Assembly: GCA_963707945.1 (NCBI GenBank)
Contig: CAVPRM010000002.1
Coordinates: 1,212,340-1,276,339, forward strand
Source of the DNA: an uncultured delta proteobacterium
GTDB lineage: Bacteria > Myxococcota_A > UBA9160 > SZUA-336
Direction: 5' to 3'
Length of the DNA: 64,000 nt
Position numbers and translations under genes: made by a program. Of this stretch, positions 30,750 to 64,000 are shown in pieces (the first letter of the stretch is position 1; each line of letters starts with the position of its first letter). The notes beneath the pieces were generated by a model. The model was not told where the DNA came from. It searched no databases and was given only the letters and a program-made list of their open reading frames with translations.

Positions 30750-30758
30750 GGCCGCATT

Positions 30759-31970: not shown

Positions 31971-31997
31971 CGCTCGCGAGTGTATACTGGCCCACCG

Positions 31998-32873: not shown

Positions 32874-32889
32874 GCGCGGGAGACGAACC

Positions 32890-33732: not shown

Positions 33733-33735
33733 CCC

Positions 33736-34215: not shown

Positions 34216-34365
34216 GGGGAACTCCTCTCGATGGATCAGCCCTCCCTTCAGCAACCGACGTGCCAGCCTTCGCGCGGCCCCAGGGGTCTCGCGGGTGCCC
34301 GGGCTGCAGCGGCTGGGCGACACCGCAGCCCCCCGGCGGCGGCCCGTCGAGTACCCTCTCGACCG

Positions 34366-35713: not shown

Positions 35714-35730
35714 TGCGGGAGTTTCGAGCA

Positions 35731-37071: not shown

Positions 37072-37072
37072 C

Positions 37073-40930: not shown

Positions 40931-41488
40931 GTGCAGATCCTCCCGCTCTCCTCCACGCCGTTCACCGCCCCGACCGACCGCGACATGCTCCCGTCCGAGC
41001 GGCGCGAGTTCGTCCGCAGCCACCGCACCTGCGTCTTCGGCTACGCGCGGCGCTCCGACGGGCCGGCCATGTCGATCGTGTACTACGTTCCGACCGACGG
41101 CGACGAGCTCCTGGTCTCCACGATGGGCGGCCGCGCCAAGGCGAAGGCCGTGGCACGCGACGGAAAGGTCAGCCTCTGCGTCCTCGACGAGCGCTGGCCG
41201 TTCGCGTACCTGCAGGTCTACTGCGATGCCCGCCTCGAGTCAGAGCCTGAGCTGGTAGTAGACGTCATGATGGCCGTCGGCGCGCGCATGTCGGGCCAGC
41301 CGCTCCCCGAGCAGGCGCGGCCGGCGGTGAAGGCGATGGCCGAGAAGGAGGGCCGCGTCGTCCTACGGTGTCGCCCCTACGAGACCTTCGCGCAGCCGCC
41401 GCGCCACCTGCACCGCAACGATCAGCAGGGGGCGATCAGCCACTGGATCACGGGAGCCGTGCCGTGGAATGCGCCGGATCGGCCGTAG
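40931..41488 (+). CDS. PPOX-class (pyridoxamine 5'-phosphate oxidase-like, probable F420/FMN-dependent) oxidoreductase
   Basis: GTG 40931 lies 7 nt after GGAGAG. RREFVRSHRTCVFGYARRSDGPAMSIVYY...ELLVSTMGGRAKAKAVARDGKVSLCVLD is typical of the split-barrel PPOX family. Confidence 0.7.
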   Translation: MQILPLSSTPFTAPTDRDMLPSERREFVRSHRTCVFGYARRSDGPAMSIVYYVPTDGDELLVSTMGGRAKAKAVARDGKVSLCVLDERWPFAYLQVYCDARLESEPELVVDVMMAVGARMSGQPLPEQARPAVKAMAEKEGRVVLRCRPYETFAQPPRHLHRNDQQGAISHWITGAVPWNAPDRP

Positions 41489-43175: not shown

Positions 43176-43277
43176 GCTTGCCTCACGATCGGAGTGGGCG
43201 GGAATCTACCAAAGACCCCCCCGCGGCCCAGCAGGCCGCGGGCCACGGTACGCGGGGCCGCCATGTAGAATCCGCGG

Positions 43278-45907: not shown

Positions 45908-46635
45908 AGGCGTCGCTGCTTCGCTGGTCGGCCTGGGCCCCGGGGATCGAGACGCGCGCCGACTGGGAGGCGTGGGCGCAGGCGCCTACGCCGCTGCCAC
46001 CGGTCGGTGTACCCGACGCGAAGTTCCTCCCGGCGATGTTGCGGCGCCGCTGCACGCCGCTCACCCGCACCATGCTGACGGCGGCGTTCGGCGCAGCCGA
46101 CTCCGACGAGATCGCGCGCCTGCGCACCGTGTTCTCGTCGCGCCACGGCAGCATCAACGAGTCGATCGGCCTGCTCGAGAACGTGGTGCGCCGCGAGAAG
46201 CTGTCGCCGGCGACGTTCAGCCACACCGTGCACAACGCGCAGGCGGGGCTGTTCTCGATCGCAGCGGGGAACCGCGCGGCGTCGAGCTCGCTCTCGGCGC
46301 AGGAGGACTCCTGGGTGTCGGGCTTCGTCGAAGCGCTCTGCTTCCTGGAGCGCGACCCGCGCGAGCCCGTGCTCCTGGTGGTGGGCGACGTGCCGCTCGC
46401 CGAGACCTTCGCGCCGCTCGTCGACGAAGCGGCGACGCCCTACGCGTTCGCGGTCCAGGTCGGCGCGCCGGGGACGGGGCCGGGGATCGAGCTCGAGCTC
46501 GCCGCGCGCGCGGGCGCCGAGCGCGAGCGCCCGGGCTGGCCGCCCGCGCTCGACTTCCTGCGCTGGTGGCTCGGCACCGAGCCGCGGCTCGAGCAGACGA
46601 GCCGCTCGGGCGCGCAGCGCTGGACGAGGCCGTAG
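45904..46635 (+). CDS. beta-ketoacyl synthase chain-length-factor-like protein (Ketoacyl-synt_2/PF13723-like)
   Basis: GTG 45904 overlaps the KS stop (GTGA). There is no catalytic Cys. MLRRRCTPLTRTML...SRHGSINES...LSPATFSHTVHNAQAGLFSIA is the pattern of APE-type CLF partners. Confidence 0.8.
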   Translation: MKASLLRWSAWAPGIETRADWEAWAQAPTPLPPVGVPDAKFLPAMLRRRCTPLTRTMLTAAFGAADSDEIARLRTVFSSRHGSINESIGLLENVVRREKLSPATFSHTVHNAQAGLFSIAAGNRAASSSLSAQEDSWVSGFVEALCFLERDPREPVLLVVGDVPLAETFAPLVDEAATPYAFAVQVGAPGTGPGIELELAARAGAERERPGWPPALDFLRWWLGTEPRLEQTSRSGAQRWTRP

Positions 46636-46637
46636 GA

Positions 46638-50125: not shown

Positions 50126-51728
50126 ATGCGTATCCATCGAATCGCGCTCGCGGTGGCCGTGTTCACGTTGCTCGCCCAGGTCGCCGCCGCGCAGCAGACC
50201 TTCACCAGCGTGGGCGGGCCGTGGTGGTTCAAGCTATCGGGCAAGGACAAGGGCGCGCTGTTCGTCGAGCTCAGCGAGCCGAATGCCGGCACGCTGACCG
50301 TCGTGGACGTCGCGCTCAGCGACCGCCCGAGCTTCGGCTTCTCGCGCTCGCTGGCGGCGTTCTTCCAGCTCGCCGCGGGTCAGGCGCTGTCGATCGACGA
50401 GAAGGGCAACCTCACCGGCGTGCTCGAGCTCAGCGAAGCGGGCGGCACCGATCCGGTCGGCATGCTCACGATCGACAAGGGCAAGTCCAACAAGAAGTTC
50501 ACCAAGCTCGAGCCTGCACGCGACGATCGAAGGCGTGGGCGGAGCGCCGCTCGTGGTGAAGCTCACGGGCGTGCGGCCGCCGGCCGGCTTCCCCGTGCTG
50601 ACGGGTCACACGAGCGAGGCGAGCGTCAAGGGCAAGGGCGTGAAGTCGAGCCAGCTCGATCTCGCCGTGACGAGCGACGGCAATCTCGGCTTCCCCGCCT
50701 ACACCTGGACCGGCGCGGGCATGGTCGACATCGACAAGGTCCCCGTGGACGCGAACTTCGCCGGCCACCTCATGCTCGATCCGAAGTTCAAGGCGCAGGG
50801 GCTGCTCGAGAGCTCGTCAGACCTCGGGACGGGCCCGCTCAGCGGGAAGCTCGTCGCGAGTGGCAAGACCGCGACCGTTCCGAAGCTCTCGCTCACCGCC
50901 GAGGCCGACCGCAAGCTCGGAATCAAGGCCAAGCTCAGCGACCCGACCGAGCCGATCCTCCTGGTCACTCCGCTCAGCTGGAACTTCGGCGCGATCCACC
51001 TGGACGGCATGCCCATCAAGTTTTTCCAGGTCTCGAACGTGGGCGTCGGGACGCTGTCCGGAACCGTCTCGTTCCTGGCCGGCAGCGATCCCGACTTCAA
51101 GCTGCCCGGAGCGACCACGTACGGTCCGCTCGCGCCGGGCGATCCGCCCGTCAACATCGCGGTCATGTTCGACCCGAACGTGCCGGGTGACAAATCCGCG
51201 TCGCTGCGCTTCGGCGTCGACACCTTCGTCGGCGCGAAGGTCGTGGCACTGACGGGCGTGGCCGGCCTGGCCGACATCGATGTCGACACGGACCCGATCA
51301 GCTTCGACGACACGGCCGTCGGATCGTCGCAAATGCTGGTCGTGACCGTGTCGAACGGCGGCGACGCCACCCTCACCGGCAGGGCGACGCTGACCGGCTC
51401 GAGCGCCTTCGCGCTGCTCACGCCGCCGAACACGCTCCCGGTGAGCCAGATCTCCTATTCGCTCGCGCCCGGCGCCGAAAAGGAGATCACCATCCGCTTC
51501 ATGCCGACCGCGACGGCCGACTTCACCGGCACGCTGAACCTCACCGGCGGCGGCGGCCTGATCGGTGGCGATGGACGGGACGGGGATCTGAGCGCTCAGC
51601 GCCCTCGCTCCGGCCTGCCCAGCGCCCGCCTCCGCTCGCCCTTGTACGCGTTCGCGCGGCGGCCCATCTCGTTGCCGTCGGCGGGGAAGAAGAACTCGAA
51701 GGCGCTGTCGATCGGACCGCCGTCGTAG
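50126..51728 (+). pseudogene. secreted protein, paralog 2 of 48543-50021; frameshift near 50510, 3' end uncertain
   Basis: MRIHRIALAVAVFTLLAQVAAAQQTFTSVGGPWWFKLSGKDKGA... is colinear with paralog 1. Deleting the g at 50510 restores TKLSLHATIEG, which aligns with TKLSLKGTIEG. The last ~45 codons overlap the antisense of the convergent gene and have no counterpart in paralog 1. Confidence 0.75.
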
Positions 51729-52310
51729 TTCCGGAAGTGCGTCTTGCGCACGGCGAACTCGACGCAGCGAGATCGCGCCGAACACGAGCCAGACGATCCA
51801 GCCCGTGTAGGCGCGCCACCAGGCGGGCGGCGCGAACAGCGCGAGCGCGGCGATGCCGAGCGCGTTCAGCAGGAACACGACCGCCCACAGCGCGGTCACG
51901 CCGCGGCAGTACCGGCCGATGAAGCCGGGCGCGTTGGGCTCGAGGCGCAGCGCGGCGCGCTCGACCAGGCTCTGCTCGGCCCGGAGGCTGGCGGCGAAGA
52001 TCCGCGCGAGCGCGGCGTACAACCAGGCCGGGATCAGGAGCAGGAACACGTGCTCGGCCGTCAGAGCGGCTGCGAGCGGCAGGCCGACGAACCCGGCCGT
52101 GTCGAGCGGACCCAGCGACAGGTCGCGCGGCAGCGCGCCGCGCGCCGCGAAGATCGAGAGCGCCGTCAGCGCGAGAAACGCGACCGCGAGCGCGCGCACA
52201 CCGAACTGCGTCACCAGACCGCCTTCGACGAACGGCCAGAGCAGCGTGAGCAGCGCGAAGGCGACGCCCACGACGAGCGCGCCGCGCCCCGGTCGCTCCA
52301 GCTCAGCCAA
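51596..52310 (-). pseudogene. polytopic membrane protein co-transcribed with the halogenase; frameshift near 51764
   Basis: ATG 52310 overlaps the halogenase stop by 8 nt. It has 5-6 hydrophobic helices up to ...WIVWLVFGAISL, then VEFAVRKTHFRNYDGGPIDSAFEFFFPADGNEMGRRANAYKGE...* in another frame (stop 51596). Confidence 0.6.
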
Positions 52311-53871
52311 GGGACTTGGCGGAAAGGAGCGCGCTGAGCGACAGCGTCTCCTCCGGATCGACCGCCGTGTCGGGCCCCAGCAGCTGCAGCGCGCGCCGGC
52401 GCACGTCGTTGAAGATGTCCTCGGTCTTCTCGAGCACCTCGCGTCGCGGGCGCGGCAGGCCGACCTGCTTCAGGAAGTCGAGGTGGTCGAGACCGGGTGT
52501 GAAGTTTCCCTGGTTCGCGCGGTAGAACTCGCCGCGCTTGCGCAGCGACTCGGCGACCCGACGGAACAGCGCGTTGAAGTTCCCGAGCGCCGAGAGGATC
52601 AGCGGCGCCATCCGCAGCTGGCGGCGCAGCCAGCGCGGATCGAGGTGCTCGTCGCGCAGGTACGGCGAGACCCACAAGTTGAAGTAGCAGCCGATGTCGA
52701 AGTCCCACTTCAGCTTGCCGAGCTCGAAGCTGCCGAAGCTCTCGTACTGGTTGCGGTACAGGAGCAAGGTCGCTTCCTGGCGGAACGCCATGAACCGGTC
52801 GTAGAGGTCGCAGCGCTCCGCAATCGCGGCCGCGCTCTCGCCCGCGAAGTCGCGCACGATCAGCTCGGTCAGGAAGTCGTTCTCGTGCGCGATGAAGTCC
52901 GTGCCCGGGCTGTAGAGCGGATCGGCCGAGGTCGCCGCTTCGCCGGTCAGCCCCCAGCGGTCGGGCGAGAAGTAGCGCTCCGTCGAGTACGCGATCTGCG
53001 TGTAGCTGCCCTGGTCGAGCGGCTTGGCGTCGCGCAGCAGGTGCGCCATCGCGGCGTGGCCGTCGAGAAACCGGCGGAATCCCTCCGGCGTGCGCAGCGC
53101 ACGCTCGTCGAATCCCGTCGGCCCCGTGACACCCACGCTCGTGATGCCGTCGTGCAGCGGGATGAACCACGCCCAGTAGCCCGGGTAGAAGAAATGGATC
53201 GTCGAGAGGAACCGGCTCGAGTGGCGCACGCGCGCGCGCCACGCGGCGGGGCCGAGATCGTCGACGTCGGCCACGCCCTCGAAGCGGCCCCACACCGAGC
53301 CGATCCGGTGCGTCTCCTCGCGCTGGCGCAGGCCGAGCGTGCGCGCGATCAGATCGGCTCGGCCTGCGGCGTCGACCAGCCAGCGCGTCGAGTGCTGCAC
53401 GGCGCCGTTCGGGCCGACGACCTCGAAGCGGTGCGGCGCGCCGCCGGTCCCGATCTCGAGTGGCCGCGCGCGCACCCCGGTCTCGACCTGAACTCCCGCG
53501 CGCCGGTTCATCTCGAGCAGGTCCGCCTCGAGCCGCGCGCGGTCGATCTGGAACGACGGGTGGTAGGGCAGATTGATGGGGCCGATCTCGCTCATCTCCC
53601 AGAGCGGAAGCGAGCGGTCGGCCGAGTCGTAGAAGTAGCGCAGCCCGTTCTTCGGCAGGTGCCGGTCGTAGAGATAGCGCGACAGGCCCTGGCGCTTGAT
53701 CAGGTAGTGGCTGCCGATCTCGACGACCGACTCGCCCACCTTCCAGCTCGACTCGCGCGACTTCTCGTAGAGGCCGATGCGCAGGCCGGGCGCGCTGCGC
53801 GTGAGCTGTCGCGCGAGCAGGTTGCCTGCGAGCCCGCCGCCGAGGATGGCGACGTCGAGGTCCGGGCTCAC
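52303..53871 (-). CDS. flavin-dependent halogenase-like FAD oxidoreductase
   Basis: GxGxxG (DVAILGGGLAGNLLA), SWKVGES, and the halogenase-type WxWxIP motif (GYWAWFIPL); 522 aa. The start overlaps the KR stop (ATGA). Confidence 0.75.
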   Translation of the reverse strand: MSPDLDVAILGGGLAGNLLARQLTRSAPGLRIGLYEKSRESSWKVGESVVEIGSHYLIKRQGLSRYLYDRHLPKNGLRYFYDSADRSLPLWEMSEIGPINLPYHPSFQIDRARLEADLLEMNRRAGVQVETGVRARPLEIGTGGAPHRFEVVGPNGAVQHSTRWLVDAAGRADLIARTLGLRQREETHRIGSVWGRFEGVADVDDLGPAAWRARVRHSSRFLSTIHFFYPGYWAWFIPLHDGITSVGVTGPTGFDERALRTPEGFRRFLDGHAAMAHLLRDAKPLDQGSYTQIAYSTERYFSPDRWGLTGEAATSADPLYSPGTDFIAHENDFLTELIVRDFAGESAAAIAERCDLYDRFMAFRQEATLLLYRNQYESFGSFELGKLKWDFDIGCYFNLWVSPYLRDEHLDPRWLRRQLRMAPLILSALGNFNALFRRVAESLRKRGEFYRANQGNFTPGLDHLDFLKQVGLPRPRREVLEKTEDIFNDVRRRALQLLGPDTAVDPEETLSLSALLSAKSLG

Positions 53872-54605
53872 AGCATGCCTCCGTTCACCGAGATCACCTG
53901 GCCGGTCAGGTAGCCGGCCCCTTCGGAGAACAAGTACACCACGAGCGACGCAATCTCATCGGGCCGGCCCAGACGCTGCAGCGGGACGAGCTTGCGCAGC
54001 TCCTCGACCGGCGCGCCGGCGAGCATCTCGGTCTCGACCAGGCCCGGCGCGACGCAGTTCACGGTGATCGCGCGGCGCGCGAGCTCGAGCGAGAGCGCCT
54101 TGGTCGCCCCGTGCAGACCCGCCTTCGAGGCGCTGTAGTTCACCTGCCCCCGGTTGCCGACCAGCCCCGCGATCGACGAGATCGCGACGATCCGGCCGCC
54201 GTCGTGCATGCGCACGAGGGGCATGACCAGCGGGCGGAGCACGTTGTAGAAGCCGTCGAGGTTGGTGCGCAGCACGCGGTCCCACGCCTCGCCGGTGAGC
54301 GCGGGGAAGGCGGCGTCGGCATGGACACCTGCAGCGAGCACCACGCCCCAGTACGGCCCGGCCTCGGCGACGTCGCGCTCGAGCGCGGCGGCGGCGGCCG
54401 CGCGGTCGGCCACGTCGAAGCCGAGCAGGCGCGCGTCGCGGCCGAGCTCGCGGGCCTCCTTGGCGACCGACTCGGCGGCGGCGGCGTCCGCGCGATAGCC
54501 CACGCCGACGTCGAAGCCCGCGCGCGCGAGCCCGAGCGCGCAGGCGCGGCCGATGCCGCGGCTCGCGCCGGTGACCAGAACCCGCCGCGTCTCGGGCGAG
54601 CTCAT
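53868..54605 (-). CDS. fabG: SDR 3-oxoacyl-ACP reductase (KR of the polyene cluster)
   Basis: VLVTGASRGIGRA, NYSASKAG (YxxxK) and NCVAPGLVET; 245 aa. ATGA overlaps at both ends. Confidence 0.9.
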   Translation of the reverse strand: MSSPETRRVLVTGASRGIGRACALGLARAGFDVGVGYRADAAAAESVAKEARELGRDARLLGFDVADRAAAAAALERDVAEAGPYWGVVLAAGVHADAAFPALTGEAWDRVLRTNLDGFYNVLRPLVMPLVRMHDGGRIVAISSIAGLVGNRGQVNYSASKAGLHGATKALSLELARRAITVNCVAPGLVETEMLAGAPVEELRKLVPLQRLGRPDEIASLVVYLFSEGAGYLTGQVISVNGGML

Positions 54606-55024
54606 GCCAGCGCGTCCGACACGTAGACCGACAAGGTGCCCTCTGCGACGAGCTCGTCGCCCGCGCGCAGCTCGCATGCGAACGAGGCGAGCGCGCCCGC
54701 GCGGCCCAGGAGCCGCGCGGAGACCTCGAGCGATTCGTCCGCCGCGAGCCACTCGCGGTGCAGGCCCAGCTGCTTCGCCCCGACCAGGAGCCCGGGAGAC
54801 GGCGCTCTGCCCAGCGCGCGCGCCAAAAGCCCGCCGTGCGCGGCGATGCACTGCGCCATGTACTCCAGCCCGACGTACGCGGGCACCCGCCCGTCGGCCG
54901 CCCGGAAGAGCTCCGAGTCCGCGACCAGGACCGAGCACACGGTGCGCTCGGGCGAGTGCGACAGCACGCGGCGAACCAAGAGCATCGGACGCGCGTGGGG
55001 AAGCAGCTCGGCCGCCGCGGTCAT
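54602..55024 (-). CDS. hotdog-fold 3-hydroxyacyl-ACP dehydratase (ApeP-like)
   Basis: 140 aa. LLPHARPMLLVRRVL...VPAYVGLEYMAQCIAAHGG is typical of the small APE-cluster dehydratases. The ATG lies inside ORF 54602-55912. Confidence 0.75.
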   Translation of the reverse strand: MTAAAELLPHARPMLLVRRVLSHSPERTVCSVLVADSELFRAADGRVPAYVGLEYMAQCIAAHGGLLARALGRAPSPGLLVGAKQLGLHREWLAADESLEVSARLLGRAGALASFACELRAGDELVAEGTLSVYVSDALA

Positions 55025-55991
55025 TCCGGCTTCTCGCCCAGCGCGCGCAGGCCGTCGCCGTAGAAGTCGTAGAAGTTGAACCATTGCCTGGGATTGCGCA
55101 GCGCGTAGTGCTCGAGTCGCCGCACCCAGGCTTCGAGCGTCTCGCGCGCGACCTTGTCGCGCTCGGCGCGCGGCACGGGGCCGCCCTCGAAGAGCGGCTC
55201 GGTCACCGCGAAGTACCGAAGGTGGCCGGTGCCGATGCAGAGCGAGATGTACACCGGGGCACCGAGCACGGCCCCGAGCAGGAACGGCGTCAGCGGGAAC
55301 GCGGCGCGCCGCCCCGCGAACTGCGTCGCGGCGGGCCGCTCGCGGCCGCCGGGATGGACGCGGTCCGCGAGGATGCCGACGAACTCGCCGCGGTCGAGAC
55401 ACGCCTTGATCTCGAACGCGCTCTGCACGGACGTGGGGTCGGCCGCGATCACGCGCACCCGACTGCCGCCGCCGAGCGAGTCGAACAGTGCGTTCACCCG
55501 CTCCGCGTGGTTGGTGAACATGAGCACGTTCACGCGCAGGCCGTACTTGCCGGCGATCAGGCGCAGCATGTCGAAGCTGCCCAGGTGCGCGCCGACCAGA
55601 AGCGCCCCGCGACCCTGCCGCGCCAGCTCGAGCAACGCCTCGCCGCCCGAGTGGTCGATCTGGAACATCGAGCCGGCGCCCGCCCACAGGATCATCCGGT
55701 CCATCACGCTGCAGGCGAACCCATAGACGTGCCGGTACACCATGAGCCAGCCCGGCTTCTGGCCGAGCGCGGCGCGGCCTTCGGGAGTCGCCCAAACGGT
55801 TTCGAGCCACTCGCGCGACGAGCCGCGCGTCACCCCGTCGCGCACGATGAAGTAGAGCGAGATCGGCACCAGCAACGAGCGCCAGGCCCGTTCGCCCGAA
55901 GTTCCGGTACATCCAGATCCCGAAGCGCGAGCCAGCCGCGGTTCCCGCGCTCGTCCTTGCGCGCCCACTCGCCGCCGCGCGGGGCGCTCAC
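55021..55991 (-). pseudogene. LpxL/HtrB-type (lipid A biosynthesis-like) acyltransferase, probably two close frameshifts near 55920 and 55891
   Basis: GTG 55991 overlaps the GT2 stop (GTGA) and encodes ...EWARKDERGNRGWLALR. The next frame gives IWMYRNFGR, and the third gives AWRSLLVPISLYFIVRDGVTRGSSREWL...GAHLGSFDMLR...ILADR. The middle segment is short, so the exact indel positions are uncertain. Confidence 0.7.
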
Positions 55992-56722
55992 GGCGCGCTC
56001 CGGCCCGCGAGCAGCGCCGGCGCGCGGCGCAGCATCGCGAGCCACAGCCGCGCGTAGGTCGCGCCCATCACGGGGAAGTCGCGGCCGACGTCGAAGTGCG
56101 AGATGCCGCCGGGCACGTAGATGACCCGCACCGGCACGTTCACGATCGGGATGCCCTCGAAGACGCAGCGCACCGCGAACTCCGGCTCGAACTCCATGCG
56201 GGTGCCGAGCTTGCCCCGCGCCAGCACGCGCAGCGCCGGGCCCAGCGGCACCCCGCGCATGCCGCAGAGCGGGTCGCGGATCGCGAACGAGAGCGTCGCC
56301 AGCCACACCGCGCCGCGCGAGAGCTGGCGCGCCCAGATCCGCGAACGCGGCGCGGTCGCGTCGAAGACCGGCTCGCCGAGGACGAGCGCGTCGGGATCTT
56401 TCTGCATCGCCTCGAGCATGCGCGGCACCGCTTCGGCTTCGTGCTGACCGTCGGCGTCGAGCTGAAGCGCGTGCGTGAAGCCGAGCTCGGCGGCGAGCGC
56501 GTAGCCGGCCTTGAGTGCCGCGCCCTTCCCGCCGTTCTCGGGCAGCGCGTGGAGGTGCACGAAGTCGAAATCGCGCGCGAGCCGCGCCAGCTCGGCGCGG
56601 GTCTCGGATCCGCTCCCGTCGTCCACGACCAGACACGGAAGAGCGTAGCCCGCGAGCGATTCGAGCACGCCGCGCAGCGGAGCGCCGTGGTCGTAGCAAG
56701 GGATCAAGAGGCAGGGCTTCAC
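55988..56722 (-). CDS. glycosyltransferase family 2
   Basis: LLIPCYDHG, VVDDGSGSET, ENGGKGAALKAG and QLDADGQH (DxD region); 244 aa. Confidence 0.88.
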   Translation of the reverse strand: MKPCLLIPCYDHGAPLRGVLESLAGYALPCLVVDDGSGSETRAELARLARDFDFVHLHALPENGGKGAALKAGYALAAELGFTHALQLDADGQHEAEAVPRMLEAMQKDPDALVLGEPVFDATAPRSRIWARQLSRGAVWLATLSFAIRDPLCGMRGVPLGPALRVLARGKLGTRMEFEPEFAVRCVFEGIPIVNVPVRVIYVPGGISHFDVGRDFPVMGATYARLWLAMLRRAPALLAGRSAP

Positions 56723-58623
56723 GGCGAGCCCTCCGGGGCCAGCGCCGCGCGGCCCGAGGCGAACGTGCGCGCGCCGGCGAACACGCGGAAGCGCAGGCTC
56801 GCGCCGTCCGGGTCGAGCTCGACCTCCAGGGCGAAGCTCTGCTCCGGCTCGAGCACGTCCCGGAAGCGGACTCCCGACAGCGCGCCCACGCGGCGCGACG
56901 GTCCGACGAGCTCGCGCGCCGCCTGCAGCACCCAGTGGAGCTGCACCACCCCCGCGACCAGCGGCCTGCCCGGGAAGTGGCCCTCGAGGAAGGCGAGCTC
57001 TGCGGGCACGCGCAGCTCGCGCACGAGCTTGCGCAGATCGCGCTGCTCCGAGATCAGCACGGGCTCGCGCACGGGCCCGATTGTCTTCGCTCGGCTGCGC
57101 CTCGCTGCGCGCGGCTGCGCCGCCGACAGCGGCCCGCGGGACGATGTCCCGGGGAGGGGCCTCGCTCGGGACGGCCCTCGCTCGGCCTCGCCATCGTCGA
57201 GCAGCTCGAGCAGCTTCGCCTGCGCGAGCTTGCCCTGCGGGTCGCGCGGCAGCTCGGCCAGGTAGCGCCAGGCGCGCGGCAGGAGCACGCGATCCCAGTA
57301 CCCCGCGAGGTGATCGGCGAGCGCCGCGCCCAGCGCGCGCCGGCCGCTCTCCGCGAGCGCAGTCTGGCCGGCGTCGGACAGGGCGACCACGGCGCCGACC
57401 CGCGCGTCACCGCCCGCGTCGAACGCGACCAGCGCCGCATCCGCGACGAAGGCGTGCGTGCGCAGGTGCGATTCCATCTCGGGCAGCGCGAGCCGCTTCT
57501 CGCCGACCTTCACGATCCGGTCGGCGCGGCCCAGCAGCGCGAACCCGCCGTCGGCGTGGAGCTCGACCCGATCGCCCATCACCAGAGTCTGCGGCTCGCC
57601 GGCGCGCGCTGCCGAGCCGACGCTGACGAACGGCGAGCGCACGACGAGCCGGCTCTCGTCCGGCTCGGCCGCGAGCTCGACGCCGGGGAACGGCTGCCAG
57701 CGCGCGGAGGGCCCCGCCAGCGACTGCGCCCGCCAGGCGACGCCGCCGGTCTCGCTCGAGCCGAAGATCTCGAGCGGCGCCTGGCCGACCAGCCCGGCGA
57801 CGTCGCGCGCCACGTCGTCGTCGAGCGGGCCGCCCGACGAGAAGATCGCGCGGCACCCCGCGCGGAGCCCCGCGAGCTCGGCGTCGGCGCGCATCCGGCG
57901 CAGGTGCACGGGCGTGGTCGCCAGCGCGAAGTCGCCCGCCTCGCGCATGCGCGGGAAGAGCTCCTCGGTGTGCAGGAACGTCTCGGCCGAGAAGGCGCGC
58001 CCCGACGCGAGCGGCCAGAGCACCCGGAACAAGAGGCCGTACAGGTGCTGGTGCGACACGGTCGCGAACACGCTCGCGCGGCCGAGTCGCGCGCCGAACA
58101 GCGCCTCTTGCACGGCCAGCTCGAGATCCAGGTGGCGCAGCGCCTTCGGCACCGCCTTGCCCGGCCCGGTCGTGCCCGAGGTCGAGAGCTCGACCAGCGG
58201 CCGATCCGGATCGAGCGCCTCGAAGCGGACGGCCCCGGTCCCGACCTCGCCCAGCGGGTCGAGCCGCGGCAGGCCGGACAGCTCGTCCTCACCGATCCCC
58301 GGATCGACGAGCGCGCCGTCGGCCTGCGCGGCCAGCTCGGACAGGGTCTGCGGCTGCCGGTTCGGCGCGACCAGCGCCCGCGCGCCCGCGTGCGCGACCG
58401 CGAGCAGGCCCACCGCGAACGCGTAGCTGTCCTCCGAGAAGAGCAGCAGCCGGGCGCTCCGGCGCGCCGCGATCTGGGCCGAGAGCGACCCGACCCGCGC
58501 CGCGAAGTCCGACCAGTCGCGCTCGACGTCCCGCGCGAATGCGACCCGAACGCGCGGATTCCGCCCCCTGCGGAGCAGCTCCGCGAGCGGGATGAAATCG
58601 AGGGCGGCGGCGAGCTCGCTCAC
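56719..58623 (-). CDS. AMP-dependent synthetase/ligase fused to a C-terminal FabZ/ApeI-type hotdog dehydratase
   Basis: TSGTTGPGKAV, FGSSETGG, GRADRIVKVGEKR and the QGKL adenylation cores, then the linker GEAERGPSRARPLPGTSSRGPLSAAQPRAARRSRAK encoded by repeat copy E, then LAFLEGHFPGRPLVAGVVQLHW (hotdog). It is a single 634-codon ORF. Confidence 0.85.
   Translation of the reverse strand: MSELAAALDFIPLAELLRRGRNPRVRVAFARDVERDWSDFAARVGSLSAQIAARRSARLLLFSEDSYAFAVGLLAVAHAGARALVAPNRQPQTLSELAAQADGALVDPGIGEDELSGLPRLDPLGEVGTGAVRFEALDPDRPLVELSTSGTTGPGKAVPKALRHLDLELAVQEALFGARLGRASVFATVSHQHLYGLLFRVLWPLASGRAFSAETFLHTEELFPRMREAGDFALATTPVHLRRMRADAELAGLRAGCRAIFSSGGPLDDDVARDVAGLVGQAPLEIFGSSETGGVAWRAQSLAGPSARWQPFPGVELAAEPDESRLVVRSPFVSVGSAARAGEPQTLVMGDRVELHADGGFALLGRADRIVKVGEKRLALPEMESHLRTHAFVADAALVAFDAGGDARVGAVVALSDAGQTALAESGRRALGAALADHLAGYWDRVLLPRAWRYLAELPRDPQGKLAQAKLLELLDDGEAERGPSRARPLPGTSSRGPLSAAQPRAARRSRAKTIGPVREPVLISEQRDLRKLVRELRVPAELAFLEGHFPGRPLVAGVVQLHWVLQAARELVGPSRRVGALSGVRFRDVLEPEQSFALEVELDPDGASLRFRVFAGARTFASGRAALAPEGSP
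57085..57185 (+). repeat. GC-rich REP/MITE-like repeat, copy E, lying in frame inside a coding sequence
   Basis: CTTCGCTCGGCTGCGCCTCGCTGCGCGC ... GACAGCGGCCCGCGGGACGATGTC (57125-57148) ... CCTCGCTCGGGACGGCCCTCGCTCGG is colinear with copies A and D. Confidence 0.8.
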
Positions 58624-58637
58624 GACGCCGCTCGACC

Positions 58638-58910
58638 TCAGGCGCGCCCTTCGGTCGAGACGCGCTGGTGCACGAGCTCGACGATCTCGCCGATCGTCCG
58701 CATCTGCTCGATGTCGTCGTCGGAGAACGCGAGCCCGGTATCTTCCTCGATCCAGCCCGCCAGCGCGACGCCGTCGAGGCTGTCGAAATCGAGGTCGGTC
58801 CGGAGATCGGTCTGGGCCGAGATCTCCGCTGCATCGACGTCGAACTCGCGCACCAGGATCGCGAGCACTCGCGCCTGGATGTCCTGCTTGGAGCTCTGTT
58901 GGAGCGACAC
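58638..58910 (-). CDS. acyl carrier protein
   Basis: 90 aa. The DLDFDSLDGVAL motif carries the phosphopantetheine Ser. GTG start after AGGAGA. Confidence 0.85.
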   Translation of the reverse strand: MSLQQSSKQDIQARVLAILVREFDVDAAEISAQTDLRTDLDFDSLDGVALAGWIEEDTGLAFSDDDIEQMRTIGEIVELVHQRVSTEGRA

Positions 58911-58930
58911 GCTCTTCTCCTGCGAGCCGC

Positions 58931-59200
58931 CTAGTGAGATAGCTGTGAATTCACGAACTCGGCGAGGCTGCGCACCGAGGCGAAGATGCGCCGGTTCTCG
59001 TCGGGATCATCCTCGATCTTGACACCGAAGCGCTCCTCGAGCGCCATCGCGAGCTCGAGCGCGTCGATCGAGTCGAGCCCGAGCCCCTCGACGAAGAGCG
59101 GCGCCTCGCTCTCGATCTCGTCGGGCGCGATGTCCTCCAGCACGAGCGCCTCCACGATCAGGCGCTTCAGCTCCGACTCCAGCCCGTTAATCCGCGGCAT
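58931..59200 (-). CDS. acyl carrier protein
   Basis: 89 aa with the GLGLDSIDALEL motif. The start overlaps the upstream acyltransferase stop by 14 nt. Confidence 0.88.
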   Translation of the reverse strand: MPRINGLESELKRLIVEALVLEDIAPDEIESEAPLFVEGLGLDSIDALELAMALEERFGVKIEDDPDENRRIFASVRSLAEFVNSQLSH

Positions 59201-59999
59201 CCGTACTCTCCGTGAGTTCTCTAGCGAATCGCGCGCGCAGCGCGCGGGTCAGTTTGCGCGCGGCGAGCACCGTCGACTCCCCGCCGTCCAGATGTTCCTT
59301 CGCGACGACCGGCTCTCCCACCCGGACGGTGTAGACCCCCCGGCTCGGAGGAACGTGATACCACGGAAGGCCCTTCATCAGCATGCGGGGCGAAACTTCG
59401 ATCTCGATCGGGAGCATATCCAAGCCCGTCGCGAGCGCGACGTGGGCGGCCCCGCGCTGGAAGCGGCCCAGGCCGGCCTCGGGGCTCCGCGTGCCCTCCG
59501 GGAAGACCAGGAGCGTTCGACCTTCGCGCAACCTTCGCGCCGCCTCGCGGACCACGTCGGCTCCGGAGTCGTTGGCGATGTAGTCCGCGGCCCGGATCGC
59601 CCCGCGCAGCCAGCGGTTCTCCGCGCGCGAGCTGGCGACGATGCAGTCGGCCTGCGGCAGGTGCGAGACGATCAGCTCCACGTCGATCAGCGACGGGTGA
59701 TTGGCCACGATGATGCGGGGCCGATCACCGGCGAGGCGCTCCACGTCGACCCAGTGCACCTCGATCACGCCCAGCACCTGCATCAGGCGCACGTGGAGCC
59801 GGTACATGCGGTGGATCGCGCGCTGCGCTAGGCGCCAGGGCTCTGCGCTCGGCGGGTCGACGAGCTTGCGCAGCGGGAGCCAGACCAGCGAGAGCCAGAC
59901 GCTCCACAGGCCGAACGTGACGAATGCGAACCCCGTCGCCGGCGTGCGCCACGCCTTCGAGACCCAGCCCAGCCACCGCGGGCGCGATCGCGAACGCAT
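59187..59999 (-). CDS. lysophospholipid (PlsC-type, 1-acylglycerol-3-phosphate-like) acyltransferase
   Basis: Last 271 codons of ORF 59187-62027. It has an N-terminal TM segment, the HxxxxD box (ANHPSLID) and FPEGTRS. Confidence 0.85.
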   Translation of the reverse strand: MRSRSRPRWLGWVSKAWRTPATGFAFVTFGLWSVWLSLVWLPLRKLVDPPSAEPWRLAQRAIHRMYRLHVRLMQVLGVIEVHWVDVERLAGDRPRIIVANHPSLIDVELIVSHLPQADCIVASSRAENRWLRGAIRAADYIANDSGADVVREAARRLREGRTLLVFPEGTRSPEAGLGRFQRGAAHVALATGLDMLPIEIEVSPRMLMKGLPWYHVPPSRGVYTVRVGEPVVAKEHLDGGESTVLAARKLTRALRARFARELTESTDAAD

Positions 60000-60103
60000 C
60001 CCCCTGCGTAACCTCCCTCGACCCCCGACGAAGGCGCGAGCCGGAGCGAGTCTAACACCGCCCTCTTCGCGCTGTAAACGAGCGCCGCTGAAAGGAAAGG
60101 CGG

Positions 60104-60523
60104 CTACTGCGTAGCGGGATCGTAGAGGACTTCGATCACCGTGAGGGCTCCGTTGTACTTGTTCCTCGAGAACGTGATCTGGCCCTTGCCCTTGTACGTC
60201 CAGCCTTCGCGCGAGGCCTCGGTGCCGAAGTAGTACGGCATGAAGGTCTTCGCGCTCGGGTAGGCGTGGGTCGCCGTCGGCGCGCCGAGGATCTGCTTCA
60301 CCTGAGCGTCGGTCATGTCGTACTTCACCTTCTCGAAGGGGTGACCCTTCGGGATCGGCTTGGTGCTGGCGGCCTGGGCCGCGTCCTGACCGGGTTGCGC
60401 CGCGGGCGCCGGGGCCGAGCTGGACGAGTTGGACGCGCTGGACGAACCGCGGTTCGCGCAGCCAGCCAGACCGACGAGAGCGAACACGGCGACGAGCGAT
60501 CGAACCGACTTCGTGCGAGACAA
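60104..60523 (-). CDS. lipoprotein, function unknown (BamE/SmpA_OmlA-like core possible)
   Basis: TTG start and lipobox LVGLAG-C, then a Ser/Ala/Pro-rich linker, then YDMTDAQVKQILGAPT... Confidence 0.7.
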   Translation of the reverse strand: MSRTKSVRSLVAVFALVGLAGCANRGSSSASNSSSSAPAPAAQPGQDAAQAASTKPIPKGHPFEKVKYDMTDAQVKQILGAPTATHAYPSAKTFMPYYFGTEASREGWTYKGKGQITFSRNKYNGALTVIEVLYDPATQ

Positions 60524-60593
60524 TGCGGGCTCCTTCTCCCGGGGGGCGCGCCCAGCTTAGCGCGCACGTTGCGCTTTGTTTACTCCTACTCGC

Positions 60594-62132
60594 ATGAGCT
60601 TTGCATCGATCGAGATCGGTTCGGCTCCGCAGACCCTCGACAACCTGCTGGCCCTCGCGCGCGGCCACGTGCGGCCGGTGCTGTCGAATCGCGCCCAGTA
60701 CCGCGCCCGGCTCGACGCCGAGCACGCCGCCGTCGCGCGCGCACTCGCGCGCGGCGAGCGGGTCTACGGCGTCTCGACGGGAGTGGGCGCGTCGGTCGGG
60801 AACGCCGTCGAGGCGGAGTTCCGCTCCGACCTGGTCCACAACCTGTTCCGGATGCTCGGCACCGGGGTGGGCGCGCCGCTGCCCGAGCTCGGCGCCGCGG
60901 CCGTCGTGACGGCGCGGCTGGTCTCGCTCGCCGCGGGCCACTCGGGAATCCGACCGCTGGTGCTCGAGCGGCTGGCGGAGCTCCTCGAAGCCCGCTGCCT
61001 GCCGCGGATCCCCGAGTGCGGCTCGGTCGGCGCGAGCGGCGATCTCGCCCCGCTCTCCTACATCGCGAGCATGCTCGCCGGCGAGGGCGAGGTGACCCTG
61101 CGCGGCCGGCCGACCGACGCGCTGAAGGCGCACCAGCTCTTGCGGCTCGAGCCGCTCCGCTTCGAGCCGAAGGAGACGCTCTCGCTCGTGAACGGGACCA
61201 GCTTCATGACCGGGCTCGGGGCGCTCGCCTGGGAGCGCGCGGCCGAGCTCGCGCAGGTCGGCTGCGCGATCACCGCGATGGCCAGCGAGGCGACCCGCGG
61301 GAATCCGCGCCACTTCGACTCGCGGATCAGCGAGTGGAAGCCGCACGCCGGACAGATCCTGGCGTCCGAGTGGATTCGCACGCACCTCGAGTACCACTCC
61401 GGCAAGCCGATCCCGGCGCCCGCGCGGCTGCAGGACCGCTACTCGATCCGCTGTGCGCCGTCGGTCCTCGGGGTGCTGATCGAGGCCAGCGAGATCGCGC
61501 GCGGGATCCTCGAGATCGAGCTGAACGGCGCCAACGACAACCCGCTGGTCGACCCCGACACCGGCGAGATCCTGCACGGCGGGAACTTCTACGGCGGGCA
61601 CCTGTGCTTCGCGCTCGACGGGCTGAAGAGCGCGGTCGCCAGCGTCGCCGACCTGATCGACCGCCAGGTCGCCCTGCTCTGCCGGCCCGAGACCAGCGAG
61701 GGCCTGCCCGCCGAGCTGATCTCGCTGGAAGGACCGGGCGGGTTCGCGCACCACGGCTTCAAGGGCATGCAGGTCACCGCGTCCGCGCTGACGGCCGAGG
61801 CGCTGAAGCTGACCATGCCCGCCGCCGCGTTCAGCCGCAGCACCGAGTCGCACAACCAGGACAAAGTCTCGATGGGCGCGATCGCCGCGCGCGACTGCCT
61901 GCGCGTCCTCGACCTCTCCGAGGCCGTGGTCGCGATCGGGCTGCTCGCGGTGTGCCAGTGCGTGGATCTGCGCGGCGGCGCGCCGAGCCGGCAGAGCCGG
62001 CGCCTGCACGAAGCGGTGCGCAAGCACGTGCCGGCGCTGCGCGGCGACCGGCGCCAGGACTCGGACATCGCGCGGGTGGTCGAGCTGGTGCGCTCGGGCT
62101 CGCTGCCGCTGGCCTCGCGCGCCGCTTCATGA
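60594..62132 (+). CDS. MIO-dependent aromatic amino acid ammonia-lyase (HAL/TAL/PAL family)
   Basis: The MIO-forming triad is in GSVGASGDLAPLSY, with YGVSTGVG and NGANDNPLV motifs. ATG 60594. The stop overlaps the next start (ATGA). Confidence 0.88.
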   Translation: MSFASIEIGSAPQTLDNLLALARGHVRPVLSNRAQYRARLDAEHAAVARALARGERVYGVSTGVGASVGNAVEAEFRSDLVHNLFRMLGTGVGAPLPELGAAAVVTARLVSLAAGHSGIRPLVLERLAELLEARCLPRIPECGSVGASGDLAPLSYIASMLAGEGEVTLRGRPTDALKAHQLLRLEPLRFEPKETLSLVNGTSFMTGLGALAWERAAELAQVGCAITAMASEATRGNPRHFDSRISEWKPHAGQILASEWIRTHLEYHSGKPIPAPARLQDRYSIRCAPSVLGVLIEASEIARGILEIELNGANDNPLVDPDTGEILHGGNFYGGHLCFALDGLKSAVASVADLIDRQVALLCRPETSEGLPAELISLEGPGGFAHHGFKGMQVTASALTAEALKLTMPAAAFSRSTESHNQDKVSMGAIAARDCLRVLDLSEAVVAIGLLAVCQCVDLRGGAPSRQSRRLHEAVRKHVPALRGDRRQDSDIARVVELVRSGSLPLASRAAS

Positions 62133-62788
62133 GCTTGCGCCGGGCCTGTCTCGCGCTGCTGGCGCTGGCGGCGCTCGGCGCCGAGCCCGCGGCTCCGCCG
62201 CAACCGGCCGGGCCGCCGCCCGGCACGATCACGCTCGACGACCTGCTCGCGCACATGGCGACGACGAGCGGAGTGGTCGCCGAGTTCCGCGAGATCAAGA
62301 CGCTGAAGCTCCTCGACGCGCCGCTCGAGACGCGCGGCACGGTCTACTACGCGCCGCCCGACCGCCTGGCGCGCGTGACCCGCGAGCCGGCCCAGACGCG
62401 GCTCATCCTCGACGGCGGCCACATGCGCTACCAGGACGCCGCCGGCGCGCGCGATGTGGACCTCGCGAGCAACCCGGTCGCGCGCGCGTTCGCCGACAAC
62501 CTGATCGTGCTCTGGCGCGGCGACAAGGCGGCGCTCGAGAAGATCTACGCGCTCGACTTCCGCGCCGACGGCTCGCGCTGGCAGCTCGAGCTGACGCCGA
62601 AGAGCTCGCCGCTCGACCGCTTCGTGCGCGCGATCGAGCTGCGCGGTGAGGGCGCCGCGATGCGCGAGATGGAGGTCCTCGAGTCGGACGGCGACAAGAC
62701 CCAGACCCTCTTCGAGAAGACCGACGTCGCGCACAGCTTCGGCGAGGAAGAGGCGCGCGCGATCTTCGGCGCGCGGCCGGCGCCGTGA
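62129..62788 (+). CDS. LolA-like outer-membrane lipoprotein carrier family protein
   Basis: Signal peptide MSLRRACLALLALAALGA. FREIKTLKLLDAPLETRGTVYYAPPDRLARV ... WQLELTPKS is the typical LolA-related protein of APE clusters. Confidence 0.75.
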   Translation: MSLRRACLALLALAALGAEPAAPPQPAGPPPGTITLDDLLAHMATTSGVVAEFREIKTLKLLDAPLETRGTVYYAPPDRLARVTREPAQTRLILDGGHMRYQDAAGARDVDLASNPVARAFADNLIVLWRGDKAALEKIYALDFRADGSRWQLELTPKSSPLDRFVRAIELRGEGAAMREMEVLESDGDKTQTLFEKTDVAHSFGEEEARAIFGARPAP

Positions 62789-64000
62789 ATCGCGCCGCGC
62801 GGCTCGCGGCCTGGGCCGTGCTCTCCGCCGCGCTGCTCGCCTACAGCGCGGCGCACCTCGAGTTCTCCACCGACATCACGAACTTCCTGCCCGACGGCGA
62901 GGGCGCCGAGCTGGCGCAGATCTCGCGCGAGCTCACCCGGAGCGAGCTGACCCGCACGGTGGTGCTCTCGATCGGCGCGGACGACCCGGCCGTGGCCCGC
63001 GCGGCCGCGCGCGAGCTGGCCGAGACGCTGCGCGCGAACCCGGAGGTCGCCTGGCTGCGCGCCGGCGCGGACCCGGAGTTCCTGCGCGGTGTGTACGAGC
63101 TCTACTTCCCGCGCCGGATGTACTTCCTGTCGGACGCGCCGGAGACCGAGCTCCCCGGCCGACTCTCGGACGAGGGGCTGCGGGCGCAGGCGCAGGCGGT
63201 GCGGGCGAGCCTCGCGCTGCCGACCTCGCCGCTCATGAAGCAGATCGTCCCGGAGGATCCGCTCGGCGCGCTCGAGCGCCAGCTCGCGCGGCTCACGGCG
63301 GGCGAGCCGCCGCTCGTGACGCGCGACGGCGTCTTCACGACCGCGGACGGACGCTTCGCGGTGCTGGTCCTGGCCACGCGCCACTCCGCGTTCGACTCCG
63401 CGGCGCAGGCGCCGCTGCTCGACGCGATCGCCGCGAAAGTTCGCCGAGCTGCGCGCGCGGCTCGGCGGGAACCTCGTCCTCGAGCAGAGCGGCGCAAACC
63501 GCTTCGCCGTCGACGCCGAGCGCCAGATCCGCTTCGACGCCTCGTGGATCTCCGCGCTCTCGTTCGCGGGCGTCACCGCGCTCACCTACGTGTTCTTCCG
63601 CTCGCCCCTGTCGCTGCTCCTGGTGATGATGCCCGGCACGTTCGGACTGCTCGTGGCGATGGCGCTCGGCATCGCCGTGTTCGGCAAGCTCGACGGGATG
63701 ACGCTCGCGTTCGGCGGGTCGCTGATCGGCGTCACCGTCGACTACCCGACCCACCAGCTCATCCTGTGGAGCCTCTCGGAGCGCAACGAGTCCGCCTGGC
63801 AGCTCTCGCGCCGGCTCGGCGCTTCGCTCGTGATGGCGGCGCTCACGACGATCGCGAGCTTCGCGGGCATGGCCTTCACCTCGTTCCCCGGCTTCCGCGA
63901 GCTGGGGCTGTTCTCGACGGTCGGCGTGGGCGCGGCCGTGCTCGCCTCGCTGTTCATGCTGCCCGACCTGTTGCCGCGGCGGCGCCGCGTGCTGCCCGCC
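62785..64000 (+). pseudogene. MMPL/RND-type exporter (partial, continues past window), frameshift near 63437
   Basis: GTG 62785 overlaps the LolA-like stop (GTGA). It has an N-terminal TM helix plus a periplasmic domain. After ...LLDAIAAK the frame changes (aaa-g-ttc) to FAELRARLGGNLVLEQSG...FFRSPLSLLLVMMPGTFGLLVAMALG...VTVDYPTH...SFPGFRELGLFS. Confidence 0.8.

Follow-up and report, generated by a model that had tools for sequence, protein, structure and literature searches.

The 64,000-nucleotide stretch analysed here, from an uncultured, Myxococcota-like delta proteobacterium (contig CAVPRM010000002.1 of assembly GCA_963707945.1, positions 1,212,340 to 1,276,339; hereafter the window), ends in a gene cluster that we assign to the aryl-polyene (APE) family of type II polyketide synthase (PKS) lipid-pigment clusters. 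We put at about three in four the probability that it represents a widespread subtype of this family, bearing both an aromatic amino acid ammonia-lyase and a flavin-dependent halogenase, and that it works by the mechanism proposed below. The most likely product, predicted from the gene content, is a (hydroxy)cinnamate-primed and probably ring-halogenated aryl polyene, held on a glyco- or phospholipid anchor and exported to the outer membrane. Few families of bacterial biosynthetic gene clusters are considered as widespread as the APE family, whose products protect cells against oxidative stress.

As a reference we used the APE core set of Grammbitter et al. (2020), i.e., ketosynthase (KS; apeO/R), acyl carrier protein (ACP; apeE/F), chain-length factor (CLF; apeC), dehydratase (DH; apeI/P), ketoreductase (KR; apeQ) and transporter (apeM). 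The window is ~72% GC, so mechanical lists of open reading frames (ORFs) are rich in antisense artefacts, and third-position GC analysis alone did not separate real from antisense ORFs at this composition; the gene calls rest on profile matches and orthologue alignment. The elongating KS (44702..45907, plus strand) has its active-site cysteine in TACSSGA and its histidines in EAHHMSAP and NLHGTGT. It matches the Pfam models ketoacyl-synt and Ketoacyl-synt_C and reaches 481.8 bits with NF006618/PRK09185 (cut-off 407), and it misses the FabF and FabB equivalogs (FabF 199.6 bits, cut-off 493.75). Its partner (45904..46635, plus strand), which overlaps the KS stop codon, is a CLF-like protein of the ApeC/Lysobacter ORF16 type, with 166.1 bits (E=1.2e-48) for PF13723. 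The KS/CLF pair that the earlier note had placed at 44.7-46.6 kb is thus real, and a KS-PF13723 pair is a hallmark of xanthomonadin-type clusters (PMC3691225).

The remaining chain-building genes lie on the minus strand. The ketoreductase, a FabG2/ApeQ-like short-chain dehydrogenase/reductase (SDR; 53868..54605), passes the FabG2 model TIGR01831 (344.2 bits, cut-off 338.85) and stays below the FlxB cut-off (240 against 340). The ApeP-like hotdog dehydratase (54602..55024) scores 44 bits with PF22817 (cut-off 27), whereas the FabZ models give 23-24 bits against cut-offs of 113-155. A second, ApeI-like dehydratase domain (PF22818, 31.9 bits, cut-off 28.5) is fused to an AMP-ligase (PF00501, also above cut-off) in a single ApeH::ApeI protein (56719..58623), the ligase part of which has as its best NCBIfam match the PYP-type 4-coumarate-CoA ligase TIGR02372 (E=1e-23, below cut-off). 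Next to the fusion stand tandem dedicated ACPs, two adjacent PP-binding proteins with a DSL motif (58638..58910; PF00550, 47.8 bits) and a DSI motif (58931..59200; PF00550, 39.5 bits; NF006617, 100.6 bits, cut-off 70), the second of which shows the strongest conservation of any cluster gene (94-97% identity in the closest relatives). It is because the ApeP-like and ApeI-like models pass and the FabZ, FabF/FabB and HutH cut-offs are missed that we assign the region to the APE family; the earlier note had made the same assignment, and in the profile searches neither the KS/CLF pair, the dehydratases nor the lyase falls into ordinary fatty-acid, lipid A or HutH families.

Interleaved with these genes are candidates for lipid anchoring and export. 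The minus strand encodes a PlsC-type, ApeD-like acyltransferase (59187..59999; PF01553, 60.8 bits), a family 2 glycosyltransferase (GT2; 55988..56722; PF00535, 59.5 bits) that corresponds to the N-terminal half of ApeJ, an LpxL-type (lipid A) acyltransferase (55021..55968; PF03279; NF005120, E=1e-10) that corresponds to its C-terminal half, and an ApeG-like integral membrane protein (51596..52310) without a Pfam match. The halogenase (52303..53871) stands between the membrane protein and the ketoreductase. Beyond the PlsC gene, after a gap of 104 nt, follows a small lipoprotein gene (60104..60523, minus strand; lipobox LAGC) that has weak family matches alone (BamE domain, LppK) and is conserved in the closest relatives. 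We note that over 118 aa this lipoprotein shares 30% identity (E=1e-9) with a protein annotated as hypothetical in the Azospirillum xanthomonadin-type cluster (locus L085, 11214-11633), the gene of which stands beside a MipA/OmpV gene; this hints at a conserved, unrecognised outer-membrane component. Divergent from all of these, on the plus strand, run the ammonia-lyase (60594..62132), a LolA-like periplasmic carrier analogous to ApeL/FlxQ (62129..62788; PF19574 LolA_3, 63.5 bits; best NCBIfam match the flexirubin LolA2 at 55.7 bits, below the cut-off of 125), and the N-terminal ~405 aa of an ApeM-like MMPL/RND exporter (62785..64000), which is cut by the window edge and gives 35.1 bits with PF03176 on the frame-corrected N-terminal 405 aa.

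The positions that the earlier note gave for the ten genes of the minus strand, for the lipoprotein gene and for the divergent lyase-LolA-MMPL arm are all confirmed, and the profile searches bear out the assignments. Its description of mostly ATGA or GTGA start-stop overlaps holds approximately: at the nine junctions between the ten minus-strand genes, neighbours overlap in this way by 4 nt in four cases and by more (8 and 14 nt) in two, and the other three have gaps of 14-20 nt. On the plus strand, the lyase overlaps the LolA gene by ATGA and the LolA gene overlaps the MMPL gene by GTGA.

The same arrangement recurs in other genomes. The halogenase family has 1,393 matches at E<=1e-10, the top 120 being at least 58% identical. 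One genome per species was scanned with the family alignment, giving 80 loci with 10-kb flanks, in which the cluster proteins were then located by tblastn. Almost all 80 loci come from metagenome-assembled genomes (MAGs) labelled Myxococcota, Deltaproteobacteria or Binatia, and the closest are Myxococcota MAGs with 83-85% halogenase identity. A block of FabG2, ApeP, acyltransferase, GT2, ligase::ApeI, ACP and PlsC genes stands beside the halogenase in most loci, with the gene order found in up to 57 of the 80 (the count varies by gene). Where the flank is sufficient, the lyase-LolA-MMPL arm is present in 23 of 28 loci, all of them MAGs with mainly Myxococcota or Binatia labels. In the closest relatives the halogenase, the membrane protein gene and the CLF-KS pair are contiguous, and since CLF-KS adjoins the membrane protein gene in loci L001, L002, L006 and L007, the distant KS/CLF pair of the window belongs to the cluster, with ~5 kb of apparently unrelated genes inserted between them.

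Two loci with a 79%-identical halogenase (L005 and L007) keep the architecture without the lyase or the lipoprotein gene, the LolA gene standing directly beside that for PlsC; the cluster can therefore do without its starter-supply gene or replace it. In loci L081 and L082, which have a 77%-identical lyase, the exporter is 787 aa long and is followed by a DUF3261-like (ApeN-like) gene, and the AMP-ligase::ApeI fusion is also found in L081. After the DUF3261-like gene, at 14521-21539 of L081/L082, lies a second cassette with an AMP-ligase (484 aa), a PF12831 FAD oxidoreductase, an unannotated 448-aa protein, an ACP, a second protein of the Trp-halogenase family (443 aa) and an amine-oxidase-like flavoprotein; these genes may form an additional module for tailoring or starter supply, or a small cluster of their own. 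Cultured Nannocystis was considered as a representative and rejected: its 51%-identical halogenase is accompanied by a KS and a PlsC gene alone, without lyase, GT2, LolA or MMPL genes, and the Nannocystis loci (L065, L067, L069 and L071-L073) hold a reduced halogenase-KS-acyltransferase module. Janthinobacterium lividum, which has the best halogenase match in the plasmid collection, was likewise set aside as an APE relative, its gene lying beside a type I PKS and not in an APE cluster.

The enzymes of the pathway are identified by profile searches, and from these we infer their substrates and the order of steps. The lyase, whose active site would carry the 4-methylideneimidazole-5-one (MIO) cofactor, is proposed to remove ammonia from an aromatic amino acid, most likely tyrosine, which would give a (hydroxy)cinnamic acid. 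The AMP-ligase domain of ApeH::ApeI would, on the model of ApeH and XanA2, adenylate this acid and load it onto one of the two ACPs. The KS/PF13723 pair, FabG2 and the ApeI- and ApeP-like dehydratases would then carry out iterative malonyl extension with no enoyl reduction, giving an ACP-bound aryl polyene, while the halogenase would chlorinate or brominate the electron-rich aryl ring, probably on a carrier-bound substrate; its activity, halide and timing are predictions. The PlsC-type acyltransferase, the GT2 and the LpxL-type acyltransferase (a split ApeJ) would attach the chromophore to a glyco- or phospholipid anchor, as in the Xenorhabdus APE lipids, and the ApeG-like, LolA-like and MMPL proteins, with the DUF3261/ApeN-like protein expected beyond the window edge, would carry the lipid to the outer membrane. 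These anchoring and export roles follow the Xenorhabdus APE-lipid structure and the deletion analysis of ape genes (bioRxiv 10.1101/2020.12.19.423268).

Several observations weigh against this assignment and mechanism. The 23 lyase-bearing loci are all MAGs, known from genes alone. In this assembly two cluster genes, those for the membrane protein and the MMPL exporter, carry frameshifts. Motif 1 of the lyase, Met-Leu, has neither the His of tyrosine ammonia-lyases (TALs; His-Leu) nor that of the FlxA/SgTAM/histidine ammonia-lyase (HAL) type (x-His), so that tyrosine is not assured as the substrate, and a non-phenolic cinnamate starter would be a poor substrate for the halogenase. The LpxL-type assignment is marginally above threshold (PF03279, 22.9 bits against 22.3). 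No second, ApeR-type KS was found in the window or in the 10-kb flanks of close relatives, where one KS/CLF pair is seen; one KS/PF13723 pair also suffices in xanthomonadin-type clusters. Finally, the ORFs scanned yielded no methyltransferase, thioesterase or flavin reductase.

The nature of the starter is the point most open to another explanation. The lyase has the MIO triad ASG (GASGDLAPLS; PF00221, 473.7 bits), and its start is likely the ATG at 60594, the longest ORF beginning at TTG 60576. A public 512-aa protein is 100% identical over 99% of the query. The scores of the window lyase with the HutH models are low (TIGR01225 380.5 bits, cut-off 539; PRK09367 389 bits, cut-off 524), as is that with the FlxA equivalog model (293 bits, cut-off 700), from which it also differs in motif 1. 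Selectivity motif 2 is Gln (HNQDKVSMG), the state of TALs and phenylalanine ammonia-lyases (PALs), Glu being that of HALs (PMC3992019), and we class the enzyme as an aromatic amino acid ammonia-lyase of the TAL/PAL class. Among the family, motif 2 is Gln (NQD) in 116 of 120 members and the MIO triad is nearly invariant, whereas motif 1 is highly variable: in 119 aligned lyases it is Phe-His (68), Met-Leu (19), Ser-Leu (15), Leu-His (6), Ala-Leu (4), Met-His (4), Phe-Leu (2) or Tyr-His (1). This difference suggests that starter specificity has diversified within one cluster family.

Because the clade has a Met-Leu motif 1, the substrate of the lyase is not predictable, and substrate prediction from this motif was dropped as unreliable. 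The starter might thus be something other than 4-coumarate, if the Met-Leu lyase used phenylalanine (giving cinnamate) or another aromatic amino acid, or if it were an aminomutase making a beta-amino acid; in that case the aryl head group, and with it the target of the halogenase, would depart from the flexirubin model. Consistent with this, Met-Leu is found in 19 of the 119 lyases against 68 with Phe-His and 15 with Ser-Leu, and Watts et al. in 2006 reportedly gave Phe-Leu as the PAL state of motif 1, which a hydrophobic residue followed by Leu resembles. The best PDB match, SgTAM, is a tyrosine aminomutase, followed by RsTAL, both being tyrosine-specific enzymes. An aminomutase product, however, would be unfit for the polyene-forming KS/KR/DH set. 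The authors of the FlxA study held that specificity is not predictable from sequence, yet FlxA itself defied motif 1 and proved a 1000-fold Tyr-selective TAL (PMC3992019). Tyrosine is favoured here because the halogenase family needs an activated ring, its closest relatives acting on phenols and pyrroles, and because the best family match of the ligase is 4-coumarate-CoA ligase. We regard a starter other than 4-coumarate as unlikely, though it deserves to be taken seriously.

A related proposal is that the Met-Leu lyase and the 522-aa CmlS/PltM-like halogenase clade, which are known from uncultured Myxococcota/Binatia-type genomes alone, make a new class of halogenated aryl-polyene lipid with a head group that is neither 4-hydroxyphenyl, as in flexirubins, nor hydroxybenzoate-derived, as in xanthomonadins; it could derive, for example, from phenylalanine or a modified amino acid. 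We offer this as a tentative and somewhat doubtful possibility, and retain a tyrosine-derived (hydroxy)cinnamate as the favoured starter.

The frameshifts raise the question of whether the cluster is intact. At least four apparent frameshifts occur in the 64 kb, at ~2700, ~50500, ~51766 and ~63440, the last two in cluster genes. For the membrane protein, tblastn with the 237-aa L081 orthologue aligns 52310-51765 in one frame and 51766-51599 in another, and the mechanical ORF continues to 50817. The end at 51596 given in the earlier note is accordingly right once the frame is switched near 51766 (the end at ~51599/51596 being valid in the shifted frame only), and does not hold for an intact ORF. 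For the exporter, tblastn with the 787-aa orthologue aligns 62785-63441 in frame 1 and 63437-63997 in frame 2. Were both shifts real, the cluster would be decaying and no exported pigment would be made; that two cluster genes are hit, and that the shift at ~51766 lies outside any homopolymer run, speaks for such decay. But unrelated genes are frameshifted as well, namely the second of two secreted paralogues (~50.5 kb) and a DinG-like helicase (~2.7 kb), the N- and C-terminal halves of which lie in different frames. Moreover, the shift in the MMPL gene coincides with a run of A (AAA), and every other cluster gene is intact and matches its orthologues in length. The source contig is 2.8 Mb long, and on another contig of several megabases a near-identical lyase is cut short; the pattern is typical of long-read indel errors. 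Because genes outside the cluster are also struck, the data suggest assembly errors of this kind rather than pseudogenes, and we consider decay of the cluster quite unlikely.

The halogenase has 522 residues and belongs to the phenol/pyrrole 'variant B' type, with the motifs GGGLAG and WAWFIP. Its best PDB sequence matches are CmlS, PltA, Mpy16/Bmp2, ChlB4, CtcP, CndH and PltM, which depend on FADH2 and act on phenol, pyrrole or carrier-bound substrates. In a 21-sequence alignment of the family, the glycines of GxGxxG (G11, G13 and G16), Lys74, Trp233, Trp235, Ile237 and Pro238 are invariant, as are Asn75 and Gly76. Lys74 aligns with the lysine of CmlS, 3NIX and the Ralstonia enzyme, and its position, the lysine of K-x-G, is presumably that of the catalytic lysine of flavin-dependent halogenases. 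The AlphaFold2 model is confident (predicted local distance difference test 86.4, predicted TM-score 0.90); the C-terminal ~170 residues form a helical extension outside every Pfam model.

Might the flavoprotein be a hydroxylase or another monooxygenase, and the product not halogenated? Its relatives are annotated as FAD-dependent monooxygenases or NAD(P)/FAD-dependent oxidoreductases, its Pfam Trp_halogenase score (19.7 bits) is below the cut-off of 21, and its score with the CmlS equivalog (79 bits) is far below the cut-off of 900. Against this, no sequence of the family alignment departs from the lysine of K-x-G or from the W, W, I and P of WxWxIP. All 19 PDB sequence matches are halogenases except the uncharacterised flavoprotein 3NIX, and in a Foldseek search of the PDB the first 45 structural neighbours are all flavin-dependent halogenases (E down to 2e-21, TM-scores 0.55-0.72), with the monooxygenases PnpA, KMO and PhqK ranking behind them. 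We therefore hold a monooxygenase to be very unlikely, and the identity as a flavin-dependent halogenase to be well supported. The second-best PDB match, 3NIX (24% identical to the window enzyme), is from Cytophaga hutchinsonii and was considered as a flexirubin halogenase; it was rejected, as the neighbours of a 98%-identical protein are housekeeping genes. The window halogenase is 23-27% identical to the comparators used (Ralstonia, 3NIX and Azospirillum), and no characterised member was found for the 522-aa subfamily, which by these identities appears mildly distinctive.

That ordinary fatty-acid, lipid A or histidine-utilisation genes merely lie side by side here is barely credible, for although the gene names overlap with fatty-acid and lipid A metabolism (FabG, FabZ-like, LpxL-like, PlsC, ACP) and relatives of the lyase are automatically annotated as histidine ammonia-lyase, the FabZ, FabF and HutH equivalog cut-offs are missed widely while APE-specific models pass, motif 2 of the lyase is Gln and not the Glu of HAL, no hut gene (such as hutU or hutI as neighbours) was found among the window ORFs scanned, and the synteny is kept across differently labelled lineages and with the Ralstonia ape operon.

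Several neighbouring genes appear unconnected with the pathway. The segment 46632-51728, between the CLF and the membrane protein gene, encodes a CPA2 Na+/H+ exchanger, a VOC/3-dmu-9_3-mt protein and two tandem secreted paralogues with ASH/DUF1573 Ig-like domains. At the corresponding position L001, L002 and L006, among the closest relatives, lack them all, and L004 and L041 have the antiporter alone. A cation:proton antiporter gene recurs beside halogenase-bearing clusters, in the window (46632-47918), in L004 and L041, in Azoarcus (arcG; PMC3949708) and on the Janthinobacterium plasmid (L084, 12428-13729), where it lies directly upstream of a 34%-identical halogenase homologue beside the type I PKS; its recurrence may be coincidence or a link to ion or halide handling. 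On the other side of the KS, at 41448-44705, adjoin a DUF6909 protein (575 aa, 671 bits) and an amidase-signature amidase, both of which are kept beside the KS in L001, L002, L003, L006 and L007 and not in more distant loci; they are probably an inherited neighbourhood outside the pathway. Further away, at 29550-38509, are a cytochrome P450, a luciferase-like monooxygenase, a radical SAM protein, a DUF4139 protein and, in a long stop-to-stop frame, a PALP+ACT (threonine dehydratase-like) protein, all unrelated to the cluster.

The Escherichia coli CFT073 and Xenorhabdus doucetiae APE clusters share with the window the KS, CLF, ApeE/F, ApeI/P, ApeQ, ApeD, ApeJ, ApeG, ApeL and ApeM functions. 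They use 4-hydroxybenzoate as starter and include the thioesterase ApeK. The minus strand of the window (ApeD-like, ACP, ACP, ApeH::ApeI, GT2, acyltransferase) follows their D-E-F-H-I-J order; unlike the window, they have the methyltransferase ApeB and a second KS (ApeR). Their starter is a 4-hydroxyphenyl unit, and the gene roles considered here include neither a lyase nor a halogenase (bioRxiv 10.1101/2020.12.19.423268).

Clusters of the xanthomonadin/arcuflavin type (Xanthomonas pig, Azoarcus arc and the Azospirillum ramasamyi plasmid, L085) have, like the window, a single KS/PF13723 pair together with a halogenase, and also GT2, LPLAT acyltransferases, FabG, DH, AMP-ligase, ACP, LolA and MMPL genes. 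The gene table of the Azoarcus arc cluster includes a Na+/H+ antiporter, and an antiporter adjoins the window cluster too. The Azospirillum halogenase-like protein is ~27% identical to that of the window. The xanthomonadin starter, 3- or 4-hydroxybenzoate, comes from the chorismatase XanB2 without a lyase, whereas in the window the lyase would fill the starter-supply role; no XanB2 candidate was found among the window ORFs scanned, and the methyltransferase and polysaccharide deacetylase of the xanthomonadin type are absent from the window cluster.

In the flexirubin (flx) clusters of Chitinophaga pinensis and Flavobacterium johnsoniae the same lyase-primed logic is found, with lyase and halogenase in one cluster. 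That of C. pinensis holds flxA, a TAL shown biochemically, and flxK (Cpin_1863), a halogenase (Table S4 of Schoener et al. 2014, PMC3992019), and the F. johnsoniae homologues have consecutive accession numbers (PMC3992019). The flx clusters also have an SDR, KSs, two ACPs, a lipid A-type acyltransferase, DH-like proteins, LolA, GT2 and a PlsC-type acyltransferase/exporter. Flexirubins vary in the chlorination of the aryl ring, chlorinated flexirubins being known compounds, and the flx products include ring-chlorinated, tyrosine-derived aryl polyenes (PMC3992019). There are also differences. The flx pathway relies on FlxY, a coenzyme F390 synthetase-like CoA ligase, to activate coumarate, whereas the window has the AMP-ligase::ApeI fusion as its only ligase; flx has several KSs, a methyltransferase and a thioesterase; and the flx polyene is esterified to a dialkylresorcinol made by DarAB, in a host of another phylum. 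The ORFs scanned over the 64 kb of the window include no DarA or DarB gene, and such genes could lie elsewhere in the genome. No protein of the window matches a flx model at equivalog level (FlxA 293 against 700, FlxB 240 against 340 and LolA2 56 against 125 bits).

The most similar gene content is that of the ape-like cluster on the Ralstonia solanacearum megaplasmid (RSp0369/RSp0370; L086, CP022773.1 407202-440710), which also has both a lyase and a flavoprotein of the Trp-halogenase family. The closest annotated relatives of the window lyase (46-47% identity) sit in this operon; the Ralstonia lyase (46% identical) has Gln in motif 2 as well, and Tyr-His in motif 1 where the window has Met-Leu. 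The AMP-ligase::ApeI fusion is shared (33% identical over 585 aa), as are a PF13723 CLF, a PlsC acyltransferase, tandem ACPs, an ApeG-like protein, LolA, MMPL, KS (50%), DH and FabG (62%), and the position of the PlsC gene relative to the ACPs is that of ApeD in the Ralstonia and E. coli gene order. The membrane protein of the window is 34% identical (E=6e-11) to a Ralstonia hypothetical protein encoded between ApeF and ApeH. The GT2 and acyltransferase are fused in Ralstonia and are two adjacent genes in the window (45% identical in the GT2 half and 31% in the Lip_A_acyltrans half). Among the genes tested, only the ACP at 58638-58910 and the lipoprotein had no Ralstonia counterpart. Ralstonia differs in that a single operon keeps the gene order of E. 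coli, and in having three additional KS genes, a thioesterase, a methyltransferase and, at the operon end, a halogenase of 419 aa that is 23% identical to the 522-aa enzyme of the window. The cluster has been recognised as ape-like, and its product is called unknown (PMC9542644).

The earlier note had read the lyase as flexirubin logic and the halogenase as xanthomonadin logic, and their co-occurrence as unusual. Since the C. pinensis flx cluster, the R. solanacearum cluster and 23 of the 28 loci carry both, novelty of the pairing is not supported: the combination is already known, and what is modestly distinctive is the halogenase subfamily and the Met-Leu selectivity motif of the lyase clade. 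A literature search for aryl polyenes or flexirubins with both lyase and halogenase returned nothing relevant, and the pairing was found in the supplementary table of PMC3992019. The further statement that no characterised product exists for this exact architecture (outside Bacteroidota and without a dialkylresorcinol) is fair, the Ralstonia product still being called unknown (PMC9542644). The window extends the lyase- and halogenase-bearing APE subtype into uncultured Myxococcota and Binatia, and offers a compact, defined target (~16 kb plus exporter) for heterologous expression and for work on the halogenase subfamily and the lyase clade. The subtype links the flexirubin, Ralstonia ape-like and xanthomonadin architectures and opens no new principle. 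In sum, judged from its genes, the cluster of the window reads as a mosaic of known modules, closest in content to that of Ralstonia and in its KS economy to the xanthomonadin type.

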